Positions 1 to 11,134 of a DNA stretch of 11,134 nt are shown piece by piece. Position numbers and translations under genes: made by a program. Under the pieces are notes generated by a model that worked only from the letters and a program-made list of their open reading frames with translations, was not told where the DNA came from and searched no databases. The DNA comes from Promethearchaeota archaeon (lineage in GTDB: Archaea > Asgardarchaeota > Lokiarchaeia > Sigyniarchaeales > SOKP01). Within the stretch, counting starts at the first letter, position 1; every line of letters begins with the position of its first letter. The stretch spans positions 1-11,134 of the forward strand of contig JBHLNT010000136.1 in the NCBI GenBank assembly GCA_048941265.1, read 5' to 3'.

Positions 1-99
1 AAATCCTATTTTAAGTAATTTCTAGTGCTGAGCAGAATTTATTTATTGTCTAAATTTTATATATATTTCTAAGTTATTTGATTGAATTGCCAGTTGCAG

Positions 100-156
100 T
101 AAAAAGTTTGTAGTTAGGCTAAAAAGTTTCTTTAGAAGGGATAAAAAGTTTCTTTA
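100..156. repeat. Three short direct repeats, core TAAAAAGTTT (100-109, 120-129, 142-151); copies 2 and 3 identical over 15 bp (TAAAAAGTTTCTTTA)
   Basis: Read directly from the sequence. Start-to-start spacing is 20 and 22 bp. The repeats lie immediately downstream of the stop codon of the minus-strand deaminase gene. Confidence 0.8.
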
Positions 157-612
157 CTAAAAATTAACAATAATTAGATTTGATTCCTTCAGTAATTCTT
201 CTTTTACTTTATTTTCCATATTATATCCTTCTTTATAAACCACTTTTTTGATTCCTGCGTTAATAATTAATTTCAAACAACTCATACAAGGATAAGTTGT
301 GCTAAATAGGGTAGTTTCTCCTTTTATCGACGTACCATGTATAGCTGCCTGTATAATACAATTTATTTCAGCATGAACACCTTTACATAATTCTGGTTTT
401 TCTCCACTTTTTAAATCTTTTCTAACACAGGATTCAGGGGTGCAATGCTTAAACCCAGGTGGCACACCATTATAACCTGTAGAGATAATATGTGAATCTT
501 TGACTAGTACGGCTCCCACTTTTCTTTTTACGCACGTAGAGCGTTGAGAGACAACCTCAGCAATTTTCATGAAATATTCATCTTTAGAAATTCTAGTGTT
601 TTCTTTACTCAT
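157..612 (-). CDS. dCMP deaminase (deoxycytidylate deaminase / ComEB-like zinc-dependent deaminase)
   Basis: Zn-deaminase motifs HAE and PCxxC (HAEINC, YPCMSC); family-typical segment RSTCxKRKVGAVLVKDxxIISTGYNG; 151 aa. Confidence 0.92.
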   Translation of the reverse strand: MSKENTRISKDEYFMKIAEVVSQRSTCVKRKVGAVLVKDSHIISTGYNGVPPGFKHCTPESCVRKDLKSGEKPELCKGVHAEINCIIQAAIHGTSIKGETTLFSTTYPCMSCLKLIINAGIKKVVYKEGYNMENKVKEELLKESNLIIVNF

Positions 613-675
613 AACAACCCATCATTATGAATTCAATTTTAATACTTTTAAATAAATCAATATTTTAATTAAATT

Positions 676-2046
676 ATGACAAGTGATAGTAAGCAAAACG
701 TTACTTTTTTAATTTGGCTTTTAGCAATTATATTTTGCTGGATTTTGGGGACTACTGTTTCAACAATATTATTGGACTTTATCGTTGAATTATCTTTTCA
801 AGAGATTCAATTTGCAGAGTCATTATTTAGTTATACTATTGCGCTTACCATCTTCATTTGGGGTTATCTCGTTGATAGATTCAATAATAAAAGAAAAATA
901 ATTTTAACTTTAAGTTCTCTGCTATGGATTAGCGGGAGTTTTATGTTATTTTTTATTCCAATCAACTTTTTTACGTATAGCTTGATTCAGATCATTTGGG
1001 GTTTGTCATTTGGAGCTAGTGGGCCCTTAATTGCTTCATATCTAGGAGATGTTTTTAAAATTGAAGATAGAGGTAAATTATTTTCAATTTTTACTATTTT
1101 TATTTATATTATAAAAGGCTCTAATATAGTTATCAATGGTCTTATTGGAGAAAGCCTTGGAAATTGGAAAGCCCCGACTTTTATCTTTGCGATATTAGGA
1201 ATTCTAATTCTATTTGGATTCAACCTATTTAGTAAGGAGCCCAATCTTGCTTCAATTGAACCCGAATTTAAAACTTTTGAAGATTTTTCTTATAAATATT
1301 ATATAACTTCAGAAGAGATTAAAATAATCTTAAAAAAAAAGACAAACTCATTATTCTTAGCCCAAGGAATTAGTGGAATGATAGGCGTCGTTATTGTAAG
1401 CAGATATATGATCTATTGGTTTACAAGTGGTCAGTATGATGGATTGAATATTGATACCGGATTAGCATTGCTCCTTTTAGGAACTGGAGGGGCAGTAGGC
1501 GGACTTGTTGGAATAGTAATTGCGGGAAGGTGGATTGACAGCCAATTTAAGCATAATAAGATTAATAGGATACTCTTATTTTCAATTATTTGCTTGTTTA
1601 TGCAAATCATCTTCTATTCAATTTTAATTCTTGGAATAAATTACCCAAATGATATAAATAAGAAAATCAATAGAATTGATATCTTCCTCCAATTGTACCC
1701 AGCTTTTATTGGATTTATTCTTATTTTTAATCTGTGCGTTTTTTGCGGAACCCCAGTTGGAACAACAGTGGGAGTTGCTAGAACGCATATAAATCTTCCA
1801 GAACACCGCGGGACTGCAGGCGCTCTCTACGACTTGACTGATTTTATCGGAGCAGGGCTCGGGATAATATTAGGTACTGTGTTCATGATCATTTTGAATA
1901 GCTTTCGACTAACTATTTTATATGGAGCATTATTTTGGCTAATCTCAGGGGTCATTTGGTTATTTATTGCTAAATTCATAAAACAAGACTATGAAAGTTC
2001 TCGCGAAATTTTAAAAAATAGAGCAAATTCAGATAAGCAGAGTTGA
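676..2046 (+). CDS. Major facilitator superfamily transporter, substrate unknown
   Basis: 456 aa with about 12 hydrophobic segments in two halves; MFS motif-A-like WGYLVDRFNNKRK, repeated as AGRWIDSQF; loop motifs IEDRGK and PEHRGTAGA. Confidence 0.9.
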   Translation: MTSDSKQNVTFLIWLLAIIFCWILGTTVSTILLDFIVELSFQEIQFAESLFSYTIALTIFIWGYLVDRFNNKRKIILTLSSLLWISGSFMLFFIPINFFTYSLIQIIWGLSFGASGPLIASYLGDVFKIEDRGKLFSIFTIFIYIIKGSNIVINGLIGESLGNWKAPTFIFAILGILILFGFNLFSKEPNLASIEPEFKTFEDFSYKYYITSEEIKIILKKKTNSLFLAQGISGMIGVVIVSRYMIYWFTSGQYDGLNIDTGLALLLLGTGGAVGGLVGIVIAGRWIDSQFKHNKINRILLFSIICLFMQIIFYSILILGINYPNDINKKINRIDIFLQLYPAFIGFILIFNLCVFCGTPVGTTVGVARTHINLPEHRGTAGALYDLTDFIGAGLGIILGTVFMIILNSFRLTILYGALFWLISGVIWLFIAKFIKQDYESSREILKNRANSDKQS

Positions 2047-2052
2047 TTTTTT

Positions 2053-2544
2053 ATGAAACCGACGTTAAGGAATATTAAAGATTCAGATGGTTATCATATT
2101 ACCTCGATCATAAATTACTTCACAAAAAATAGTTTTGCTGCATTTCCAAATAAAGAAGTCGGAATTGAATTTTTTATTGCATTAAAAAAGGAAGCAATAG
2201 CATTTTATATGCTTGAGATAAATAAAGAACCAGTTGGTTTTTGTTGTTTAAGAAAATATAATCCATTTGAGACTTTCTCTCATACGGGGCTTCTTACTTA
2301 TTTTATTTTACCTGAATATACAAAGAAGGGTTTTGGTACTCTTATGTTGTCGCAACTAATCAATGATGCAGAATCAAATGGAATTAATAATTTACTTGCT
2401 TGTATTGCGTCTCAGAATATTCAGAGTATTAAATTTCATGAAAAACATGGTTTTATTGAATGTGGGAGGTTTAAAAACGTGGGATACAAATTTAATCAAT
2501 TTTTTGACCTTGTTTGGATGCAAAAATTCTTAACAGAGTCATAG
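2053..2544 (+). CDS. GNAT N-acetyltransferase, phosphinothricin/methionine-sulfoximine acetyltransferase (Pat/YncA)-like
   Basis: Acetyl-CoA motif A (YILPEYTKKGFGTLML) and the Pat-family C-terminus NxxSIKFHEKHGFxxxGRFKNVGYKFNQFFDLVWMQK. It starts 6 bp after the MFS stop, so the two are probably co-transcribed. Confidence 0.85.
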   Translation: MKPTLRNIKDSDGYHITSIINYFTKNSFAAFPNKEVGIEFFIALKKEAIAFYMLEINKEPVGFCCLRKYNPFETFSHTGLLTYFILPEYTKKGFGTLMLSQLINDAESNGINNLLACIASQNIQSIKFHEKHGFIECGRFKNVGYKFNQFFDLVWMQKFLTES

Positions 2545-2612
2545 ATAAATGAAAACTTTCTTGAAATTTTTAAAGAGAGACAAAAAATTTATAGTTAATT
2601 TTTGACAAAAAG

Positions 2613-2713
2613 TTACAAAGTATTAAATATTCAATAATCTAGTTATTCACTAACCGAAATCTAATTCATAAATCAACTTTATGTAATATTAAATTAAATT
2701 AGAGGTGAATAGT
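2613..2713 (+). promoter_or_regulatory. Putative promoter, leader and RBS of small paralogue 1: TATA-like TTAAATAT (2623-2630), conserved block 2653-2679, SD GAGGTGA (2702-2708)
   Basis: The same elements recur in the same order and nearly the same spacing at 3149-3252. The SD lies 5 nt before ATG 2714. Confidence 0.7.
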
Positions 2714-3046
2714 ATGGGATATATTGTTGTAACTGCTTGGTACCCAAGTCATTTGGGAACTGAGCTTGGGAAAAAGTACCTAGAAGTATTAAAAAAGTAT
2801 CCCCTTAGTAAATCCCCAGGAAAAGTGATTATACCAGTTATGGTTACGACGACTAAAAAAGGAATTAAAGTCATGAGTATTACTGAGTTCAAGGATGATG
2901 ATCCTCAAATGCATGCAGACGTTTTGAATTGGGCCAATAACAATATGGTAGAATACATGAACATCAAGGGTTTTGAATATAAGACTAGATTGTGGGGATC
3001 AATACAAGCATCTATGGAACTGATTGGACTGAAAATGCCTGAATAA
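2714..3046 (+). CDS. Uncharacterised ~110-aa protein, paralogue 1 (predicted small alpha/beta, possibly ferredoxin-like fold)
   Basis: ORF-track frame 2705-3046, start moved to ATG 2714 because the GTG at 2705 is part of the SD GAGGTGA. Aligns end to end with the ORFs at 3253 and 4760 (M-x-Y...W-x-P...K[YF]P...GI-x3-SI-x-E...GF[EK]Y...IG-x3-P). Confidence 0.85.
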   Translation: MGYIVVTAWYPSHLGTELGKKYLEVLKKYPLSKSPGKVIIPVMVTTTKKGIKVMSITEFKDDDPQMHADVLNWANNNMVEYMNIKGFEYKTRLWGSIQASMELIGLKMPE

Positions 3047-3087
3047 ATTATAATCCCTGAAATTTTTAAGAATTTTCTCAATTTCTC

Positions 3088-3096
3088 TTTTTTTTT
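3088..3096 (+). terminator. Oligo-T (T9) archaeal-type terminator after paralogue 1
   Basis: T9 run in a pyrimidine-rich tract starting 42 nt after the stop codon. Equivalent tracts follow paralogues 2 and 3. Confidence 0.55.
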
Positions 3097-3148
3097 CATA
3101 TATTGAACTCTTTTTTCAATTAAATCATGTTTATAAGTTTTAGGCTTT

Positions 3149-3252
3149 TTACAATAATGTTAAATATCCTTATATCTAGATATTAAACATACCGAAATCT
3201 GATTCAAAAATAAACTTAATTTAAGTTAAATATTAAAATTGAGGTGAAAATT
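3149..3252 (+). promoter_or_regulatory. Putative promoter, leader and RBS of small paralogue 2: TTAAATAT (3160-3167), palindrome ATATCTAGATAT (3172-3183), conserved block 3191-3217, SD GAGGTGA (3241-3247)
   Basis: Diverged direct-repeat copy of 2613-2713. The SD lies 5 nt before ATG 3253. Confidence 0.7.
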
Positions 3253-3576
3253 ATGCCATATCTTGTTAACAAATCATGGTGGCCAAGCGATAAAACTACC
3301 GAAGTTGTAAATAAAGCTGTTGAATTATTTCCAAAATATCCTCCAGATCCTTCATTATCAAAAACAGTTGTACCTAATTGTGTAAGAGCAACTAATAGAG
3401 GGATCGAGAATATATCTATAGCTGAAGTAAAAAAAGGAAAGCTTGAAGAAGCTTTAATAGCTGCCCAAAAATATGCAGCAGAATACCATGACATTGTGGG
3501 ATTTGAATATGCAATTCAAGTTTGGGCAACTCAATTAGAAGCATTTTCAGCGATTGGAAGGAAACCACCAGAGTAA
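3253..3576 (+). CDS. Uncharacterised 107-aa protein, paralogue 2
   Basis: ORF-track frame 3244-3576, start moved to ATG 3253 because the GTG at 3244 lies inside the SD. About 35% identical to paralogue 1 by hand alignment. Confidence 0.85.
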   Translation: MPYLVNKSWWPSDKTTEVVNKAVELFPKYPPDPSLSKTVVPNCVRATNRGIENISIAEVKKGKLEEALIAAQKYAAEYHDIVGFEYAIQVWATQLEAFSAIGRKPPE

Positions 3577-3602
3577 CTTAATAATAAAACTAAAATATTA
3601 AA

Positions 3603-3626
3603 GAGATTTCAAATCTCATTTTTTTT
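3603..3626 (+). terminator. Inverted repeat GAGATTT-C-AAATCTC followed by T8; putative terminator between convergent paralogue 2 and SDR
   Basis: Perfect 7-bp inverted repeat at 3603-3617 and T8 at 3619-3626, starting 43 nt after the stop. Confidence 0.6.
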
Positions 3627-3649
3627 CTAAGTTAATTTTAACAATATCT

Positions 3650-4546
3650 CTAACTAATACGATTTAGGAGGAATTCTATAAACTTCCTATTTTTTTTTAC
3701 TTCTCCATATAATTTTGCTTTTTTTTCCTCAAAATAAGCTTTAAAGAATTTCCAATCTGCTTTTTTATCTTTAGGTGCGCCTCTAATTAACTTTTTAACC
3801 CTTTCAAAATCTTCAGTAAATACGAATTCGTTATTTACGCTATTACCGGCTTCAGATAAATAAAATAGATAATAATCGTTAAGATCCCATGGATCTAAGT
3901 AATCATCGGGTTTATTTCCATCTTCAGCAGCGTCACCTCGAGTGATTCTTGTATCAACAAATTGTGGGCATATCTGGTTAAAAGTTATATTTTCGAGCCT
4001 ATATTCGAGTGCCATTGCTTTTTGTAATCCAACCACGGCATATTTCGAGGCAGAATAAGAAGCAAACAAAGGTAATGGAGTTCGGTATGCCTGGCTGCCT
4101 GTTATAATGAACCTAGCTCTGTCTTTCTTGTTGCTTTTGTTTAGATATGGGTATGCAGCTTTGAAAGTGTGATATACTCCTACTACATTTATCATAATCA
4201 CTTTAAGAAATCTTTCAGTTGTCACTTCATGAGTTATTGCTCTCCTTGTTATTCCCGCATTTGCGAGTACACCATTGAATAATCCCAACTCATCATGAAA
4301 TGCCTTAAAAGCGGTTTCTAATTCATCAAAATTTGTCACATCAGCAGTGTGGACAACTGCCTTTACATCCTCAATTTGTAAATCATCAATCATTTTTTTT
4401 GTAATATTCAACTGTTCTAAGGTTCTTGCAGCCAGTCCTAAACTTGCTCCTTCTTTAGCGCACGCAATTGCTACATGCTGCCCAATACCCCTTCCAGCAC
4501 CAGTTATGATTATATTTTTCCCTTTTAATAACATTGCTAAAACCAT
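3650..4546 (-). CDS. Short-chain dehydrogenase/reductase (classical SDR, probably NADP(H)-preferring) with a C-terminal extension
   Basis: TGxxxGxG (TGAGRGIG), NAG, catalytic Ser (ITGS) and YxxxK (YSASK); Arg after beta-2 (LAAR). An alternative ATG start lies at 4534. Confidence 0.92.
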   Translation of the reverse strand: MVLAMLLKGKNIIITGAGRGIGQHVAIACAKEGASLGLAARTLEQLNITKKMIDDLQIEDVKAVVHTADVTNFDELETAFKAFHDELGLFNGVLANAGITRRAITHEVTTERFLKVIMINVVGVYHTFKAAYPYLNKSNKKDRARFIITGSQAYRTPLPLFASYSASKYAVVGLQKAMALEYRLENITFNQICPQFVDTRITRGDAAEDGNKPDDYLDPWDLNDYYLFYLSEAGNSVNNEFVFTEDFERVKKLIRGAPKDKKADWKFFKAYFEEKKAKLYGEVKKNRKFIEFLLNRIS

Positions 4547-4759
4547 ATCAGTTTCAATTTAGAATATAATTAGAGTTGATATTATATAAATTAAATCTTC
4601 GCCGAAAGTGCAAAAATTGATAATTTAACACAAATGTAAAAATTTATATCCTTAATTATGATCCTTTTTATTTGCCACAAGAAATCAATTTTATTAAAAA
4701 TACTGAAAGAAGCGTTTAATCGCTAAATTAAATCAAAATGATAAAAGGAGGTTAGAAAT

Positions 4760-5104
4760 TTGGTTTATATTATGTTAACAGTATGGGTTCCCCCTGAGAA
4801 GGGGAGAGCATTAGGCAAAGCAGTATTGGATGGAGTAAAGAAATTTCCTGGAGATGAGTCAATTTCAAAACTAATCATACAAGCTGTTACAACAGATGAT
4901 TATGGTATCAGGGCATTTTCAATTAGTGAAGTATTAAAAGGTCAGATTACAAAAGCATTATCTCATACTTCTGAATTAGCGATTTTTTATGCAGAAACAA
5001 TTGGACCGGGATTTAAATACAAATTAGAGACTCTAATGTCGGCAATAGAAGCAATGAAAGTAATTGGACTTGAAATGCCTCAAGAAGCTCCCGAAATCTA
5101 CTAA
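4760..5104 (+). CDS. Uncharacterised 114-aa protein, paralogue 3
   Basis: TTG start preceded by the strong SD AGGAGGT (4746-4752). Shares W-x-P, KKFP, GI-x3-SISE, GFKY and IGLEMP with paralogues 1 and 2. Confidence 0.85.
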   Translation: MVYIMLTVWVPPEKGRALGKAVLDGVKKFPGDESISKLIIQAVTTDDYGIRAFSISEVLKGQITKALSHTSELAIFYAETIGPGFKYKLETLMSAIEAMKVIGLEMPQEAPEIY

Positions 5105-5131
5105 AGAATAAGAATTTTTAAAGTAGTTCAT

Positions 5132-5156
5132 AAAAAAATATTTAAATCTTTTTTTT
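5132..5156. terminator. A7-T-ATTTAAAT-C-T8 near-palindrome; putative bidirectional terminator between paralogue 3 and the esterase
   Basis: Inverted repeat 5132-5155 with one mismatched pair. It gives a T-run on each strand between convergent genes. Confidence 0.55.
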
Positions 5157-5209
5157 ATTATCAATATTTTTTTATACTTTAAATAGAAATTTAAAGAAAA
5201 AATTGAAAT

Positions 5210-6106
5210 TTACAAAAAGAATTTTTTTATGAATTCTCCCATTTTTTCAATTCCCTGCTGTCCTTCTAGAGCAAATGCAGCAAAAGCTGGAAATACGTGG
5301 GGCATATCATCCCAAATATCTAAGGTAACGTCTACACCCGCTTCTTTTGCCCGCTTAGCAAGCACTTCTGAATCATCAAGGAGGAGCTCAGCAGTTCCTA
5401 CTTGAATATATATAGGAGGTAAGCCTTTTAGATCCGCATATATAGGTGAAACTAAAGGATTCTGATAATCGGTGTCTCCTAAATATAATTCTGCAAAAAA
5501 GCTTATCCCATAAATAGTTATAACCGGGTCAATTTTTCTGTTCTTTCTATAGGATTCTCCGGTAATCCCTAAATCAGTCCAGGGAGAAAGCCCGACGGCG
5601 GCGGCTGGCAATGCTATTCCGTTGTCGCGTAGATTTATGAGTGTAGCAAACGTTAATCCTCCTCCAGCAGAATCGCCTGCTATTATAATATTTTTAGCAT
5701 TAATATTTTGCTCGTCAATAAGCCATTTATATGCCTTAGTAGAATCTTCTACGGCGGCAGGAAATGGATGTTCCGGTGCGAGGCGATATTCAATCATTAA
5801 AGCCCGAGTTTTGGTTGTTCTTGAAATTCTTGATACAAGTTCCCGATGAGAATTTAAAGAGCCACTTATATATCCCCCTCCATGCAAGTAGAAAATAATT
5901 TTGTCTTCTCGAGCCTCTGGTGCGGAAACCCATTCAGCAGGGATACCTTTAATATCTAGGGGAACACACTTTACATCTTTAGGAACTTTTACTAATTTGG
6001 CCAAATCTTCTAGACCATCACGTTCTTTTTTAACTCTTTCTTTGATATCTTCAGCCTTTCTTTCCCTTATTATGTTAATAACAAATTCCATACCTTTACT
6101 GACCAT
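5210..6106 (-). CDS. Alpha/beta hydrolase, hormone-sensitive-lipase (family IV) esterase or lactone hydrolase-like
   Basis: HGGG oxyanion motif, YRLAPEHPFPAA, nucleophile elbow GDSAGG, acidic residue in GTAELLLDD and catalytic His in MPHVF. Confidence 0.93.
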   Translation of the reverse strand: MVSKGMEFVINIIRERKAEDIKERVKKERDGLEDLAKLVKVPKDVKCVPLDIKGIPAEWVSAPEAREDKIIFYLHGGGYISGSLNSHRELVSRISRTTKTRALMIEYRLAPEHPFPAAVEDSTKAYKWLIDEQNINAKNIIIAGDSAGGGLTFATLINLRDNGIALPAAAVGLSPWTDLGITGESYRKNRKIDPVITIYGISFFAELYLGDTDYQNPLVSPIYADLKGLPPIYIQVGTAELLLDDSEVLAKRAKEAGVDVTLDIWDDMPHVFPAFAAFALEGQQGIEKMGEFIKKFFL

Positions 6107-6304
6107 TATTACTTTTACCTTTCCTTTTCTTTACTAAATTTTAATTTTAAGATTTTAAAGATTGGTTAATTTATATTATTTTTAGATTAATAAGGTTTAA
6201 ATTCATGCAAAATGATATTGGTAAAATTCTTAATCAGTAAATAACTTAGATTAAATAGAGTATAGATTATAATTTGACTTATTTTTCAATAACTATATAA
6301 AACT

Positions 6305-7021
6305 ATGAAGATTTTATCTGAAGTGGCATGGGGAAAACCTGTACTAAAGCTTCTCTCGTATGCAAATCAATTAAACAAAAATTGTAAGACCATAATTGTA
6401 ATACGTCATTCTGCACGAGAAGAGCCTGAAGAGCTTAAAGAGGTTTTTAAAGCACCTCTCACCACATTAGGGAAAGAGGCTGCTTTTGAATTTGGAAGTC
6501 TTTTACCTAATAGTAGAACTTATCAAATATATCACAGCACAATTGATCGGTGTAGAGAAACTGCTAAGTATATAGAAAAAGGCATTAAAAGTAAGAATGG
6601 AAAGACAATTTTTCATGGAGATATGGAAACATTAATGAGAATAAAGTGTATCGAAGAAAAATTTATAGAATATGTAGAGCGAGATGATTTTCTTTTCGTA
6701 GATCACTGGGTTGCGGGGCATTATCCTCAGGATGAGATCGAACCTGCTATTGAGCTTGCTAAACGTACAGCTTTTGAAATAACCTATAATTCAAATTCAA
6801 TAGAACAAAACACGTTAGATATTTATATAACTCATGACTTCCATATTTTAGTTTATTTATTCTATTGGGCGGGAGTTTTATCAACATCTCGGTGGATTCA
6901 ATATCTTGATGGATTTATCTTACAATTTAAGAAAAATAAGTTAATTTTTTTTTATAATGAGGGGAAAAAAGAAATTGATTATCCACATTGGTGGAAAAAC
7001 ATTCCTCTTACAAATTGTTGA
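6305..7021 (+). CDS. Histidine phosphatase superfamily protein (phosphoglycerate mutase-like fold)
   Basis: RH[G/S] motif (VIRHSAR), LTxxG (LTTLG), SxxxRCxxTA (STIDRCRETA) and second catalytic His (ITHD). Confidence 0.85.
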   Translation: MKILSEVAWGKPVLKLLSYANQLNKNCKTIIVIRHSAREEPEELKEVFKAPLTTLGKEAAFEFGSLLPNSRTYQIYHSTIDRCRETAKYIEKGIKSKNGKTIFHGDMETLMRIKCIEEKFIEYVERDDFLFVDHWVAGHYPQDEIEPAIELAKRTAFEITYNSNSIEQNTLDIYITHDFHILVYLFYWAGVLSTSRWIQYLDGFILQFKKNKLIFFYNEGKKEIDYPHWWKNIPLTNC

Positions 7022-7173
7022 TTTTGATTTGAAGACTTCTAATAAATATAAAGTAGATATTGAAATGGTTTAATATTTAATAAACAAAAAGTTATAATTC
7101 AATTATTATTATTTTGTAATAGATATTGAATTAATTCGAGTATCACTAATACTTATGCAATAGGTCTTAAGAT

Positions 7174-8484
7174 TTGTCAACATTAATGAAAATTGCGAAA
7201 GATGGCAAAACAACTAAAGAAATGGAGATTGTTGCCAAAAACGAGCAAGTAGATTTAGAATTTATTCGACGTGGAGTTGCTAAAGGAAGGATTATTATTC
7301 CAAAATCAAATGAGCGCGAATTAGATCCTCCAATAGGAATTGGTAAAGGTTTACTGGTAAAAATTAATGCAAATATTGGTTCTTCGAAAACGGTATGTAA
7401 TATAGAGGGAGAAGTGGAAAAAGCTAAAATAGCAGTGAAATATGGTGCTGATACCGTTATGGATTTAAGCACTGGAGTGACTGAGACTGATGTGAAAATT
7501 ATTAGAAAGAAAATTCTTGATCAAGTCAAGGTCCCTTTAGGAACTGTTCCAATATATCAAATAGCTTTAAGAGCAATCGAAAAAAAGGGTGCTATCATTC
7601 ATATGGATGAAGATGATATGTTCAAGGTTATAGAAGAACAAGCAAAAGAAGGTGTCGATTTTTTTACGATACATGTCGGAGTTACTAAGGATATAGTTAA
7701 TTATTTGGTCGATCACCCCAGAACAATGGGAATTGTTTCGAGAGGTGGTACTTTTCATGCCTCTTGGATTTTAGAGCATAATCAAGAGAATCCTTTTAAT
7801 AAAAATTATGATTATTTACTTGATATGGCTAAAGAATATGATTTTACGCTCTCACTCGGCGATGGAATGCGTCCTGGGGGAATTTTTGACTCAACAGATT
7901 ATGCTCAAGTTCAAGAATTATTAGAAATCTCAAAACTAGTGAAAAGAGCTTGGCAAAAAGACATACAAGTTATGGTCGAAGGCCCAGGTCATATTCCAGC
8001 AAATGAAGTAGAAAGAAACATTAAAATGCAGAAGTCATTATGTGATGAGGCTCCTTTTTACGTATTAGGACCATTAGTTACGGATATTGCACCTGGCTAT
8101 GATGAAATCGTAAGTGCTATAGGGGGAACTCTTGCAGGTTTAGCAGGTGCGGATTATTTATGTTATGTTACGCCTAGTGAGCATTTAGGCTTACCAAACA
8201 TAGAGGAAGTAAAGCGAGGTGTGATTGCTTCAAGAATAGCAGCTCATGCAGTAAATATAGCTAAGTATGGGGAAAGAGCTTCAAATTGGGACTATAAAAT
8301 GGATATTGCTAGAAAGAATTTAAATTGGCAAGAGATGATTAACCTGTCTATTGATCCTGAATTAGCGAGAGAAGTTCACTTTAGAAACGGTGCAAAAGAA
8401 TTAGATGAAGTTTGTAGCATGTGTGGAGAATTTTGCGCCATTAAGATATTAAGGGAAGCTCTTGAGAGTAAAAAAAAAAAATAG
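7174..8484 (+). CDS. thiC: Phosphomethylpyrimidine synthase (HMP-P synthase, radical SAM), short archaeal/anaerobe type
   Basis: Motifs KINANIG, GADTVMDLST, GTVPIYQ, SRGG, SLGDGMRPG, EGPGH, PFYVLGP, CYVTPSEHL and the C-terminal Fe-S motif CSMCGEFC. TTG start with AGGT 8 nt upstream. Adjacent to thiDN. Confidence 0.93.
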   Translation: MSTLMKIAKDGKTTKEMEIVAKNEQVDLEFIRRGVAKGRIIIPKSNERELDPPIGIGKGLLVKINANIGSSKTVCNIEGEVEKAKIAVKYGADTVMDLSTGVTETDVKIIRKKILDQVKVPLGTVPIYQIALRAIEKKGAIIHMDEDDMFKVIEEQAKEGVDFFTIHVGVTKDIVNYLVDHPRTMGIVSRGGTFHASWILEHNQENPFNKNYDYLLDMAKEYDFTLSLGDGMRPGGIFDSTDYAQVQELLEISKLVKRAWQKDIQVMVEGPGHIPANEVERNIKMQKSLCDEAPFYVLGPLVTDIAPGYDEIVSAIGGTLAGLAGADYLCYVTPSEHLGLPNIEEVKRGVIASRIAAHAVNIAKYGERASNWDYKMDIARKNLNWQEMINLSIDPELAREVHFRNGAKELDEVCSMCGEFCAIKILREALESKKKK

Positions 8485-8488
8485 TTTT

Positions 8489-9883
8489 TCAAATCAAATC
8501 AATAATTTTTTGAAGCTTTTTGATCATATCTTTTGAATTCTTCCCAAATAATCTAATCATAGGCTCCTTACCTTTTGCTCCGGTATCCCATATAATAGCC
8601 GGAATTTCCTTTATTCCTATCTTACTTATGTATTCCCTTATTAACCATTGCATTGTAGAATGCTCTTTTTTCTTAATTTCATCCGGTTGTGTTTCTCTAA
8701 TGAATTCGTAAGTTGTTAAATCCGTTTTTTCTTGGATTTTCTGAATTAAAAGTGCAGAGTATTTTAAATTCATTACAAAATTTATTGAGTTATCAAACTC
8801 TTTAGCAGTAAGAATTAATCGGGCCGTATGGTCTGAAACCCCAAATTTGATATCACCAGAAGCTTTAGGATAACCATTTATAATCGTAATTCTACCTTCT
8901 ATACCAGCAATCTCACTTTTATCTTTGGCATTCGGAAGAGAACCCGAAATATTTAGCCTTACTTCAGGAATTATTTCGCTAAATTTTTTATTTTCTGAGA
9001 TATAATTGTAGATTTCTTTTATCTGGTTGATAACTTCGATTTTTTGTTTAGAAATTGTTAAATTCAGAACCTTTCCTTTATCTGGTAATTCTATAAAATC
9101 TTGAAATCTCTCGTTAAAGAATTTTTCCGCGAGGGATATAGATTCTTCGATATCTTTTCCCTTACTTAAATAAGCTGTTATAGCAGAGGAGAATACACAA
9201 CCTGTCCCATGGATATTTCCTTTTATATCAATTTTTCTTTTCTCAGATATTTTAAAGAGTTTGCTATATCCCTCATCTATTTTTTTGTTAATGAGAATTA
9301 AATCAAAGATTTTATCCCTGTCTTCTCCCCCGCTTTTTATGATAACCGCTTTTTCTTCATCATAATTTTTCCCATACATTTTATTTAAAATGATAGAAGC
9401 AGCTTCTTTTAATTTATCAATATTTTCCATCCTGATGCCCTTAAGATCTACATTAGAATAGAAACTTGCCTCTGAAATGTTAGGAGTTAGAATTTTGATC
9501 ATAGGAAACAAGTTTTTTTCTATTTCATGTTCTATATCTTCACTGGAAAGTCTTTCTCCTGCACTAGAAATAGAAATAGGATCTAAAACAGCAATTAAAT
9601 CATATTTTTGAATGAAATGAACAATTATTTCTAAACCTTTAACATCTGGTATCATACCAATCTTAATATATTTCACAGGATAATTTCGTAAAACGGAGTC
9701 TAATTGTTTATCCAATTCATCAGAAAGAGATTTATACCCATAAAAATCGGTGGCACTCTGATAAGTTATAGCCGTAATCACAGAAAAGGGATGAACTCCA
9801 CACCTATCAAATGTCCTTATATCCGCCTGGATACCAGCTCCAGAAGAAGGATCTGCACCTGCGATAGTAAGAGCAAAATCCAT
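8489..9883 (-). CDS. thiDN: Bifunctional HMP/HMP-P kinase (ThiD) fused to archaeal thiamine-phosphate synthase (ThiN)
   Basis: N-terminal ThiD motifs LTIAGADPSSGAGIQAD, IKIGM, LTPNxxEA, HGTGC. C-terminal ThiN motifs IPEVRLN, GRI, FGVSDHTAR, STMQW, DTGAKGKEPMIRLFG. Confidence 0.93.
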   Translation of the reverse strand: MDFALTIAGADPSSGAGIQADIRTFDRCGVHPFSVITAITYQSATDFYGYKSLSDELDKQLDSVLRNYPVKYIKIGMIPDVKGLEIIVHFIQKYDLIAVLDPISISSAGERLSSEDIEHEIEKNLFPMIKILTPNISEASFYSNVDLKGIRMENIDKLKEAASIILNKMYGKNYDEEKAVIIKSGGEDRDKIFDLILINKKIDEGYSKLFKISEKRKIDIKGNIHGTGCVFSSAITAYLSKGKDIEESISLAEKFFNERFQDFIELPDKGKVLNLTISKQKIEVINQIKEIYNYISENKKFSEIIPEVRLNISGSLPNAKDKSEIAGIEGRITIINGYPKASGDIKFGVSDHTARLILTAKEFDNSINFVMNLKYSALLIQKIQEKTDLTTYEFIRETQPDEIKKKEHSTMQWLIREYISKIGIKEIPAIIWDTGAKGKEPMIRLFGKNSKDMIKKLQKIIDLI

Positions 9884-9924
9884 ATGAATATAAAAGAATG
9901 ATATCTAAAAATGCTTTTTTATTA

Positions 9925-10482
9925 TTATTTTGGAACCCTTTCAAAAGCCCATTGGGCTTTATCTTCTAAACCCAATTCTTGATACGCCTTCCCTAAGTAT
10001 AAAAATGCTTCTGGATAATCATACCTTTCTTTTACTAATTTAAATAAATGCCCAATCGCCATATCATATCGCCCTTTTAGGTAAAAAATCTTTCCCTTTA
10101 TAAATTGCATTTCTTGTTTTTGAGATTTTGGCAAATTGTTAATATTAATTGTATCTAATTTATCTAATGCTTCGTCATATTTTTTTGAATTGACTAATTC
10201 TTCAAAAATACTAGTAATCTTTAGATAAACCATGTTTTCAGCAATTTCCTCTATCTTTTTTTCTCTCTCTTTGCTAATTTTATCCTTTTCTTTTTCTTTT
10301 AAATAGTCTTTACTTTGATCAATTATATCCTGAGAATATGGAGTATTACACAAAGGGCAATTTGGAGAATGGAGAAGCCATTCTTTAAGACATTCATCAT
10401 GTACAGGATGATCATTAGAACATTTACGCAAAATGTCTTTACCTTCGACAATCTCCATATGACAAATTATACAATTGAGCAT
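9925..10482 (-). CDS. RING-H2 zinc-finger plus TPR protein (putative ubiquitin E3 ligase)
   Basis: C-x2-C-x13-C-x3-H-x2-H-x2-C-x10-C-x2-C with the conserved Trp (CLKEWL) and CPLC; charged helical linker; C-terminal TPR-like repeats (FIKGKIFYLKGRYDMAI, AFLYLGKAYQELGLEDKA). Start placed at ATG 10482 (185 aa) rather than at 10521. Confidence 0.88.
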   Translation of the reverse strand: MLNCIICHMEIVEGKDILRKCSNDHPVHDECLKEWLLHSPNCPLCNTPYSQDIIDQSKDYLKEKEKDKISKEREKKIEEIAENMVYLKITSIFEELVNSKKYDEALDKLDTININNLPKSQKQEMQFIKGKIFYLKGRYDMAIGHLFKLVKERYDYPEAFLYLGKAYQELGLEDKAQWAFERVPK

Positions 10483-10661
10483 ATATGGGCTCTTAAGCGT
10501 TAATTTGAATAATAAACACAATCAATAAAAATTTAAATAAATAATAAGAATTTCTGTTTTTAAGAGTATTGCTTTGCCAAAATATTTATGCATAACTTTT
10601 TTTACTACTAATAAATGCATAATTTTATTTCTGCCCATTTAAAATATTCGAGGCAAGCTTT

Positions 10662-11134
10662 TTGTCAATAAGTAAACTCTTTGATGAATTATTCAAAAAT
10701 TTTATGAAAATTAATCCTGAGGCTTATGCGGTAATAATTAGTGATCAAGAGGGATTAATCATTGCTGGCGAGAAAAGTGAGGATATTGATATGGAAATAA
10801 TTTCTGTACTAACTATTAAGGTAAATCCAATTTTGGAAAGTATTCGTAATGAATTTGCTTTTAAAAAATTTGGTACAGCTTCATTTGATACTGATGAACA
10901 TCGATTATTATTTATTTCTATAGACGAAAGTATAACAGTATCACTAGTGTTAGATATCATGGCGTCTATAGATAAAATTTATCCTTATGCTTATTTTTTA
11001 GCGGAAAAATCCGCACAAATAATTTATGACGAAATGGGGGAAAATTTTGAATTAAATATCCCAAACTTTGAATATGAAGCTGAACATTCTGAAAGATTAA
11101 AGAATCAAATATATCAAATGCGATTAGGAACAGG
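10662..11134 (+). CDS. Roadblock/LC7 (MglB-like) domain protein, 3'-truncated by the window edge
   Basis: Not in the ORF track because there is no stop in the window. Open frame from TTG 10662 (GAGG at 10650-10653; in-frame ATG at 10704): MSISKLFDELFKNFMKINPEAYAVIISDQEGLIIAGEKSEDIDMEIISVLT...FGTASFDTDEHRLLFISIDESITVSLVLD...QIYQMRLGT. The helix followed by AVIISDxEGLII hairpin is typical of Roadblock domains. Confidence 0.8.
   Translation, partial: MSISKLFDELFKNFMKINPEAYAVIISDQEGLIIAGEKSEDIDMEIISVLTIKVNPILESIRNEFAFKKFGTASFDTDEHRLLFISIDESITVSLVLDIMASIDKIYPYAYFLAEKSAQIIYDEMGENFELNIPNFEYEAEHSERLKNQIYQMRLGT

Follow-up and report, generated by a model that had tools for sequence, protein, structure and literature searches.

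Locus and Gene Model

We examined an 11,134-nucleotide stretch of DNA from a Promethearchaeota archaeon (hereafter the window; assembly GCA_048941265.1, contig JBHLNT010000136.1, positions 1 to 11,134), which contains a short gene for a protein combining a RING-H2 domain with tetratricopeptide repeats (TPRs). This RING-TPR protein is a candidate archaeal RING-type ubiquitin ligase (E3) with a binding module of its own. The coding sequence (CDS) is a minus-strand open reading frame (ORF) beginning at an ATG and encoding 185 amino acids followed by a stop codon, as given by the ORF list and its translation (table 1). A first-pass annotation, made from the letters alone, had delimited it to the nucleotide without naming the strand. 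A TTG at position 10521, 39 bases 5' of the ATG, would add 13 residues to the protein; the ATG is the better supported start, as 18 of 20 aligned homologues begin there.

The AlphaFold2 (AF2) model, computed from an alignment of 72 sequences, has a mean predicted local distance difference test score (pLDDT) of 91.8, with every residue at 70 or above. Three parts can be distinguished: the RING (residues 1-50), an unbroken helix (58-98) and five more helices. The predicted template modelling score is 0.60, and thus the placement of the RING relative to the TPRs is not fixed in the model.

Table 1. Coordinates of the RING-TPR gene, its parts and its immediate neighbours in the window.
Feature	Position	Strand	Basis
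CDS, RING-H2/TPR protein	9925..10482	-	ORF, Pfam, homologues, AF2 model
RING-H2 domain, residues 3-46	10345..10476	-	Pfam match, alignments to solved RING-H2 domains
Long charged helix, residues 58-98	10189..10311	-	AF2 secondary structure
Three-TPR module, residues 85-182	9937..10230	-	Pfam TPR_11, AF2 helix pairs, Foldseek
AT-rich 179-bp intergenic region between RING-TPR and GTPase genes	10483..10661	.	Presumed bidirectional promoter region
First 157 codons of ~520-aa GTPase gene, cut by the window end	10662..11132	+	Match to locus L001
ThiD-ThiN fusion (hydroxymethylpyrimidine phosphate kinase / thiamine-phosphate synthase)	8489..9883	-	Phos_pyr_kin 1.7e-53, ThiN 9.4e-49

The RING-H2 Domain

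The zinc ligands read from the translation, C4-x2-C7-x13-C21-x3-H25-x2-H28-x2-C31-x10-C42-x2-C45, form the canonical C3H2C3 pattern of a RING-H2 domain. The same region (residues 3-46) matches zf-RING_2 (PF13639) at 36 bits against a gathering score of 27.3 (E=8.5e-9; profile positions 2-44 of 44), and the complete C3H2C3 RING claimed at first is thus confirmed. To assess conservation we used a main alignment of 72 sequences and a second one of 60 rows derived from the genomic loci described below. In the former, C21, H25, H28, C31, C42 and C45 are invariant (72/72), and C4 and C7 are found in 67 rows, that is in all those with an N-terminus, the other five being N-terminally truncated. Because the ligands are invariant or nearly so across these 72 relatives, the RING pattern is not a product of chance.

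Three additional positions, I5, W35 and P43, match the zinc ligands in conservation. The residue directly after Cys1 (I5) is Ile, Val or Leu in 65 of the 67 rows with an N-terminus, the RING-helix Trp (W35) is kept in 71/72 and the Pro of the C42-P43 motif in 72/72. The first-pass annotation had singled out these very features, a hydrophobic residue after Cys1, the helix Trp and the CP motif, as E2 contacts; all are present, and their conservation across the family agrees with that view. To judge from the alignment, such conservation exceeds the needs of zinc binding. Positions 5, 35 and 43 make up the surface on which RING E3s dock the ubiquitin-conjugating enzyme (E2), and by analogy the same role is predicted here. 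In the small RING finger protein (srfp) of Candidatus Caldiarchaeum subterraneum, the only archaeal RING known to have been studied by mutation, substitutions at the equivalents of I5 and W35 abolished (I30Q) or strongly impaired (W58A) ubiquitylation (PMC5654768).

In an end-to-end phmmer comparison, residues 3-48 match the solved RING-H2 domains of Arkadia/RNF111 (2kiz, E=4.8e-5), ARK2C/RNF165, RLIM, RNF38 and synoviolin/HRD1, with all eight ligands in register and E-values between 4.8e-5 and 3e-4. The window RING has three residues between its third Cys and the following His, and at an earlier point of the alignment HMMER opens a gap of one residue. Directly after the last Cys, Arkadia, two RLIM chains and ARK2C (CPICR), as well as synoviolin (CPTCR), have Arg, whereas the window RING has Asn. 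The domains flanking these eukaryotic RINGs are unrelated to the RING-TPR protein.

The Charged Helix and the TPR Module

What had been described as a charged linker is borne out by the model, in which residues 58-98 form a single E/K-rich helix of 41 residues (pLDDT of 80-95 over the block). This helix carries a 7-residue insertion in the Loki majority of a 20-row alignment, and judging from the model it probably serves as a single-helix spacer. Further helices follow at residues 102-111, 119-136, 139-152, 157-169 and 173-180. The last turns of the charged helix act as the first TPR helix, giving six helices in three TPR-like pairs. Thus, the TPR-like repeats of the first-pass annotation are upheld, and their number, given there as two to three, is three. 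Among Pfam models, TPR_11 exceeds its gathering score (27.6 versus 26.8 bits, residues 130-171) and four other TPR models stay below their cut-offs. A Foldseek search against the PDB aligned only the last ~100 residues of the model (95-101 columns), with designed CTPR3-type proteins (TMt 0.74-0.78) and the TPR domain of CHIP/STUB1 (0.63-0.67) among the matches, together with MamA and PcrH; the probability is 1.00 and the best E-value 1.2e-3.

Conservation within the protein is highest in the TPR half. Over the 60 locus rows, K88, G130, D140, I143, F147, K151, Y167, G171 and L172 are invariant, as are K175, A176, W178, A179 and R182, with which the module ends in an invariant K175-A176-x-W178-A179-x2-R182 motif. 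Several of these are positions at which TPR helices usually pack; the Lys, Arg and Trp among them are not, which on sequence grounds suggests a fixed, probably acidic, ligand. Additionally, K88, K131 and K165, and in most Loki rows N133, are conserved in the A helices of the repeats. In Hsp70/Hsp90-binding TPRs of the CHIP and Hop type, the A helices carry a two-carboxylate clamp for C-terminal peptides of EEVD type.

Family Distribution and Origin of the Contig

RING-H2 is mainly a eukaryotic domain, and hence the origin of both the gene and the contig has to be considered. Of 480 candidates in a word-indexed protein search, 341 proved to be homologues at E<=1e-3. Among the 120 homologues listed, lengths range from 177 to 205 amino acids and identities from 48 to 87% over nearly the full length; they come from metagenome-assembled genomes (MAGs) of Promethearchaeota or Lokiarchaeota, where they go under "RING finger domain-containing protein" or "TPR repeat protein". 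Databases thus already name the members of this family by their domains. An exhaustive search of 50%-identity representatives gave 519 matches at E<=1e-3, 56 at <=1e-10 and four at <=1e-30, those weaker than about E=1e-10 being generic TPR or RING proteins. Finally, a scan of one genome per GTDB species yielded 136 pattern matches, and 98 of these genomes encode a relative. Since it has been kept in 98 species genomes, the family is under selection. The window and the best 80 of these 98 genomes, with up to 10 kb on each side of the gene, make up the set of 81 loci used below.

The two closest relatives in this set come from MAG contigs, one labelled Promethearchaeia (L002, 84% identical protein) and one "uncultured archaeon" (L001, 79%). 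Both share the gene order of the window: RING-TPR, ThiDN, ThiC, a histidine phosphatase (His_Phos) and an alpha/beta hydrolase (Abhydrolase_3). The window itself has about 30% G+C and densely packed, intron-free genes that include the archaeal ThiD-ThiN fusion. In the ESM Atlas, a single cluster of 95 members matches, 100% Archaea and mostly Promethearchaeota, with no eukaryotic cluster near it. No eukaryotic relative appeared in the homologue, profile and Atlas searches, in which most rows are without a taxon label. Given the dense intron-free genes, the ThiD-ThiN fusion, the shared gene order and the archaeal relatives, the contig is archaeal (Asgard, of Loki type) and neither eukaryotic nor chimeric. 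An archaeal origin had been assumed from the start, and two independent MAG contigs with the same gene order now bear it out.

The word "prokaryotic", under which the protein was first described, is correct as to Archaea and too broad as to range, for the family looks confined to Loki-type Asgard archaea, all credibly labelled members being Promethearchaeota (Lokiarchaeia). Labels of Thor-, Hod-, Hermod- or Odinarchaeota are attached to 14 loci and that of an actinobacterium to one. In a tree of the neighbouring GTPase, which includes 13 of these 14 loci, the four labels give rows and changes of 3/3, 4/4, 4/4 and 2/2, equal to the means after shuffling, and the rows concerned lie within a few percent of Promethearchaeota rows. 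Because they are randomly dispersed among Promethearchaeota rows that lie very close by, these labels are unreliable, and we therefore treat the family as Loki-type and not as pan-Asgard. Thorarchaeota reportedly have no ubiquitin (PMC9192718). The presence of "Thorarchaeota" members as an argument against E3 function was rejected, again in view of the unreliable labels. The loci whose labels are dispersed in this way are L007, L011, L016, L021, L026, L045, L056, L068-L071, L075 and L076. In locus L012, labelled Candidatus Nanopelagicaceae bacterium, the contig is of Asgard type and holds the syntenic block in full, and a binning error is the probable cause.

A more distant subgroup, typified by P0128, shows 26-42% mutual identity and one extra C-terminal helix; a profile search gave 19 proteins, which, where named, are from Promethearchaeota or Lokiarchaeota. 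Some distant relatives are longer: P0125, P0127, P0130 and P0147 have 500-675 amino acids and share a short "FDPGLD..FDP"-like motif, and P0125 and P0127 begin with a second, N-terminal RING-H2, followed by a coiled coil, a long S/T/K/P-rich low-complexity stretch and then the RING-TPR module. No Pfam family was found in the extensions of P0125, P0127, P0130, P0137, P0141, P0147, P0159, P0160 and P0167, and none of the longer relatives examined fuses the RING-TPR module to a GTPase, an E2 or ubiquitin. A dedicated search for longer homologues found none at E<=0.001 among 1963 candidates, which is weak evidence.

Gene Neighbourhood

On its 5' side, the RING-TPR gene is divergent from a gene for a Roadblock-like/Rab-like GTPase of ~520 amino acids. 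The fragment within the window is identical at 139 of 157 residues to the N-terminus of the full-length L001 protein. The divergent arrangement is found in 78/81 loci, with a median gap of 168 bp between longest-ORF starts, and a tblastn search raises the head-to-head count to 79/81 by placing the GTPase gene of L038 next to the RING-TPR gene despite an N-broken ORF. Of the two exceptions, L070 has an EamA transporter gene between the pair (1.26 kb) and L002 has no GTPase gene within its 5.4 kb upstream flank. In 50 of the 81 loci there are two or more long GTPase copies, the second standing in tandem upstream in the mapped loci. Runs of N lie at 6693-6793 of L001, within its ThiDN gene, and at 2561-2661 of L038, within its GTPase gene; these break the ORFs, and so ORF-based counts miss both genes, which tblastn recovers.

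Full-length GTPase proteins match Pfam Ras (E=6e-43 to ~1e-45), as well as Roc, Arf and once Gtr1_RagA. Their N-terminal domain is modelled as alpha-beta-beta-alpha-beta-beta-beta-alpha, a Roadblock-like order (AF2, pLDDT 74.8), and Robl_LC7 is matched weakly (E=0.005) in one of four full-length copies scanned. Foldseek aligns the GTPase domain with Rab1, Rab3, Rab5, Rab8 and Rab11 (E~1e-15, TMt 0.83-0.90, 26-33% identity). C-terminal to it are a long helix and another alpha/beta domain, the latter at residues ~360-516 in L001. Roadblock-GTPase fusions are a known Asgard architecture (PMC10933270). Mean column identity is 66% in the GTPase protein versus 56% in the RING-TPR protein.

On the other side, the ThiD-ThiN gene lies 41 bp past the RING-TPR stop codon, in the same direction. 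A same-strand ThiN-containing gene (ThiDN or ThiN alone) follows in 65/81 loci, mostly at 18-50 bp, a convergent ThiD gene in 12 further loci, and tblastn adds the ThiDN gene of L001. The layout of these genes (7174-9883 in the window) varies with lineage: a ThiD-ThiN fusion of ~467 amino acids, a ThiN of ~194 with a convergent ThiD of ~277, or ThiD alone. Scanning the window for Rfam families and tRNAs gave no hit, and in particular no thiamine pyrophosphate riboswitch by the thi genes.

We also asked how faithfully each neighbour is retained, counting only loci with enough flank. The GTPase is kept in 65/67, ThiD/N in 65/66, ThiC in 58/58, a NUDIX gene in 44/47, a histone gene in 43/51 and more distant genes in 0 to 32 of 47. 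Thus, a ~7-kb block of functionally unrelated genes stays together across the clade, and adjacency to the GTPase is kept no better than adjacency to the thiamine genes. In a mirror-tree analysis of 61 loci, the partial correlation (r) is 0.45 for RING and GTPase given ThiC, 0.34 for RING and ThiC given GTPase, and 0.48 for GTPase and ThiC given RING, both RING values having p=0.001 after permutation. The analysis does not discriminate among these pairs, because shared phylogeny explains all of the correlation. With the whole block syntenic, no specific mirror-tree signal and no fusion, the link to the GTPase is therefore a lead only.

In one locus from a complete Promethearchaeota chromosome (L050), a 734-aa UFL1-like protein with PCI, E3_UFM1_ligase and DDRGK matches is encoded at 17430-19631 (+), 7.4 kb downstream from the RING-TPR gene; among the 81 loci it occurs only this once.

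Proposed Function and Alternatives

We propose that the RING-TPR protein is soluble and works as a stand-alone E3 of the RING type whose TPRs serve as its substrate module, a reading to which we assign a probability of roughly 0.55. The RING-H2 domain would bind two zinc ions in a cross-brace and dock a ubiquitin-charged E2 through the Ile after Cys1, the RING-helix Trp and the Pro after Cys7. The highly charged helix, rigid and ~40 residues long, would keep the RING several nanometres away from the C-terminal three-TPR module. This module would in turn capture a substrate or adaptor peptide through its conserved, mostly basic residues (K88, K131, K148, K151, K165, K175, W178, R182), so that ubiquitin could pass from the E2 to a nearby lysine of the TPR-held substrate. 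The ubiquitin-activating enzyme (E1), E2 and ubiquitin itself would come from genes located elsewhere: Lokiarchaeota genomes are reported to carry homologues of the ubiquitin pathway (PMC9192718), and an Asgard (Hel) cascade of E1, E2 and RING E3 is described as active in vitro (bioRxiv 10.1101/2023.07.25.550441). By sequence, the solved structures that match best are without exception RINGs of active E3s, and the invariant Lys, Trp and Arg residues of the TPR module are what a fixed ligand would lead one to expect. The only substrate candidate that the data offer would be the head-to-head GTPase.

A number of observations weigh against E3 activity. A linchpin Lys or Arg directly after the last zinc ligand locks the ubiquitin-charged E2 (E2~Ub) in its closed state. 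The window protein has N46 after Cys8 instead of Lys or Arg, and the position is variable over the 72 rows (N 23, S 19, R 18, T 3, H 3, E 2, A 2, D 1, Y 1; Lys in none) and over the 60 locus-derived rows (N 18, R 18, S 17, D 4, T 3). In the archaeal srfp cascade, R69A at this position is reported to impair the reaction (PMC5654768). With Asn, Ser or Thr in most members, E2~Ub activation may therefore be weak or need a second element. The gene neighbourhood is likewise unfavourable. ORFs of at least 70 amino acids were called in the 80 loci and the window, clustered with BLASTP, and representatives were scanned with Pfam; the scan took in 13 window proteins, 48 representatives, which stand for 47 of 51 recurrent clusters left by a shadow-ORF filter, and 137 non-shadow ORFs whose clusters had at most two members, ORFs below 70 amino acids and shadow ORFs being left out. 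No UQ_con, ThiF-type E1, ubiquitin or JAB/Rpn11 gene was found within 10 kb in these 81 loci; the nearest approaches to one are the UFL1-like gene of L050 and a beta-grasp gene discussed below. The location away from a ubiquitin operon, previously noted for the window, thus extends to the whole locus set, and the archaeal RING E3s with proven activity are reported to sit in ubiquitin clusters (PMC5654768; bioRxiv 10.1101/2023.07.25.550441). Furthermore, the Foldseek search of the PDB gave no match at E<=0.001 and no solved structure covering both domains. Our confidence in the E3 assignment is limited because the linchpin is missing and a ubiquitin-gene neighbourhood is absent.

In an alternative scenario the RING is non-catalytic, and the protein is a zinc-stabilised adaptor or effector that offers protein-binding surfaces only, for example as a nucleotide-state-specific partner or regulator of the GTPase, much like the alpha-solenoid and RING-H2 subunits of the Rab-binding tethers HOPS and CORVET. 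Such a role would accommodate the unconserved linchpin and a gene that is never near E1, E2 or ubiquitin genes in 81 loci, and a distant relative (P0139) weakly matches zf-Vps39_C (E=4.2e-4, below the cut-off). Against it stand the conservation of I5, W35 and P43, which equals that of the zinc ligands, and the best solved-structure sequence matches, which are active E3s. The head-to-head pairing with the GTPase gene in 79/81 loci speaks for it less than it seems, since ThiC, ThiD/N and the NUDIX gene are kept just as faithfully and the RING-GTPase partial correlation is no higher than that between GTPase and ThiC. We regard a purely non-catalytic role as doubtful.

The same divergent pair, kept in 79/81 loci, is the whole basis for a narrower proposal, namely that the RING-TPR protein is a dedicated partner of the head-to-head GTPases, its TPR module binding the GTPase or an adaptor and its RING ubiquitylating or holding it. 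The logic would be that of RING E3s acting on Rag and Rab GTPases, or of the RING-H2 subunits of Rab-binding tethers. If true, the pair would represent an archaeal forerunner of ubiquitin- or RING-based control of small-GTPase trafficking modules; we consider this unlikely.

Quite improbable, in our view, is an E3 that serves some other ubiquitin-like modifier, for example one of SAMP/Urm1 type or a different beta-grasp protein, and pairs with a non-canonical conjugating enzyme. A 95-aa gene of the ThiS/Ub-Mut7C type does occur in 15/81 loci, the linchpin is variable, and nine Asgard clades are reported to have Ufm1 homologues (PMC12962969). However, that beta-grasp gene is confined to a minority of loci, where it lies ~7 kb upstream in the vicinity of an aldehyde:ferredoxin oxidoreductase gene, a usual context of MoaD-type proteins; SAMP-type conjugation is described as proceeding without need of E2 or E3 (PMC11354881); and the conserved RING surface is the one that docks the UBC fold of E2 enzymes. 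Lastly, the probability of a eukaryotic or chimeric contig, or of a chance ORF or RING pattern, is negligible, being refuted by the synteny in L001 and L002, the 98 archaeal genomes, the wholly archaeal Atlas cluster and the invariant ligands.

Relation to Known Systems

Returning to the proposed stand-alone E3, the nearest archaeal counterpart is srfp, the E3 of a reconstituted archaeal E1/E2/RING cascade and likewise a C3H2C3 RING-H2 with a hydrophobic residue after Cys1 and a helix Trp; its gene shares an operon with those for ubiquitin, E1, E2 and Rpn11, and the protein has R69 at the linchpin and no substrate-binding domain (PMC5654768). The RING-TPR gene, in contrast, has no such genes within 10 kb, and its product has Asn at the linchpin and adds a helix spacer and three TPRs. 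Because that context is absent, it is not a member of the operon-encoded srfp systems. The Helarchaeial RING E3 is also an Asgard protein and is reported to work in vitro together with E1, E2 and ubiquitin from Asgard archaea; it differs by an N-terminal loop that recognises its substrate UEV-Vps23 and by its location in a Ub/ESCRT cluster, and TPRs go unmentioned in its description (bioRxiv 10.1101/2023.07.25.550441).

Among eukaryotic proteins, the first-pass annotation had drawn a comparison with CHIP/STUB1, which has an N-terminal TPR domain, dimerises through a helical hairpin and ends in a U-box. Both proteins join a three-TPR module to an E2-docking domain in one chain with a helical region between, and Foldseek relates the TPR fold to CHIP 9r1p, 7tb1_B, 4kbq_A and 6nsv_A over about 100 columns at 14-15% identity. 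The comparison holds for this fold and not beyond it: CHIP has its TPRs first and a zinc-free U-box, whereas the present protein has its RING-H2 first and its TPRs last, and no sequence relationship between the two was detected. With the order reversed and a zinc RING in place of the U-box, it is not a CHIP family member. TTC3, rapsyn and LONRF also combine TPRs with a RING, and Vps11 and Vps18 of HOPS/CORVET, whose complexes act with Rab GTPases, an alpha-solenoid with a RING-H2; in all of these the RING is C-terminal and the protein far larger. We found no homology to eukaryotic TPR- or solenoid-RING proteins beyond the two shared domains.

In the open-access and bioRxiv papers searched we found no description of an archaeal RING-plus-TPR protein or of its pairing with a GTPase. 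A 2026 preprint lists "RING-type E3 ligases" among the alpha-solenoid structural clusters common only to Asgard archaea and eukaryotes (10.64898/2026.10.28.762692). Only two archaeal RING E3s are known to have been proven active, both small and inside ubiquitin gene clusters. If the E3 reading is correct, the RING-TPR protein would be a RING ligase with a built-in substrate-recognition module encoded apart from the core machinery, a design principle of eukaryotic E3 diversification found in the archaeal lineage closest to eukaryotes. The small size (185 aa), the confident model and a lineage with cultured members make the idea directly testable in vitro, and the conserved pairing with a Rab-like GTPase would supply a concrete first candidate substrate. 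Should the protein prove inactive, it would still be informative, as an archaeal case of a RING with a scaffolding role.

Other Open Reading Frames

Farther from the RING-TPR gene, the window contains three paralogous ORFs of ~110 amino acids without a Pfam family, at 2705-3046, 3244-3576 and 4760-5104, all on the plus strand. This ORF family has 44 members in 29/81 loci, and in the Atlas it falls into Promethearchaeota-only clusters named "hypothetical protein".

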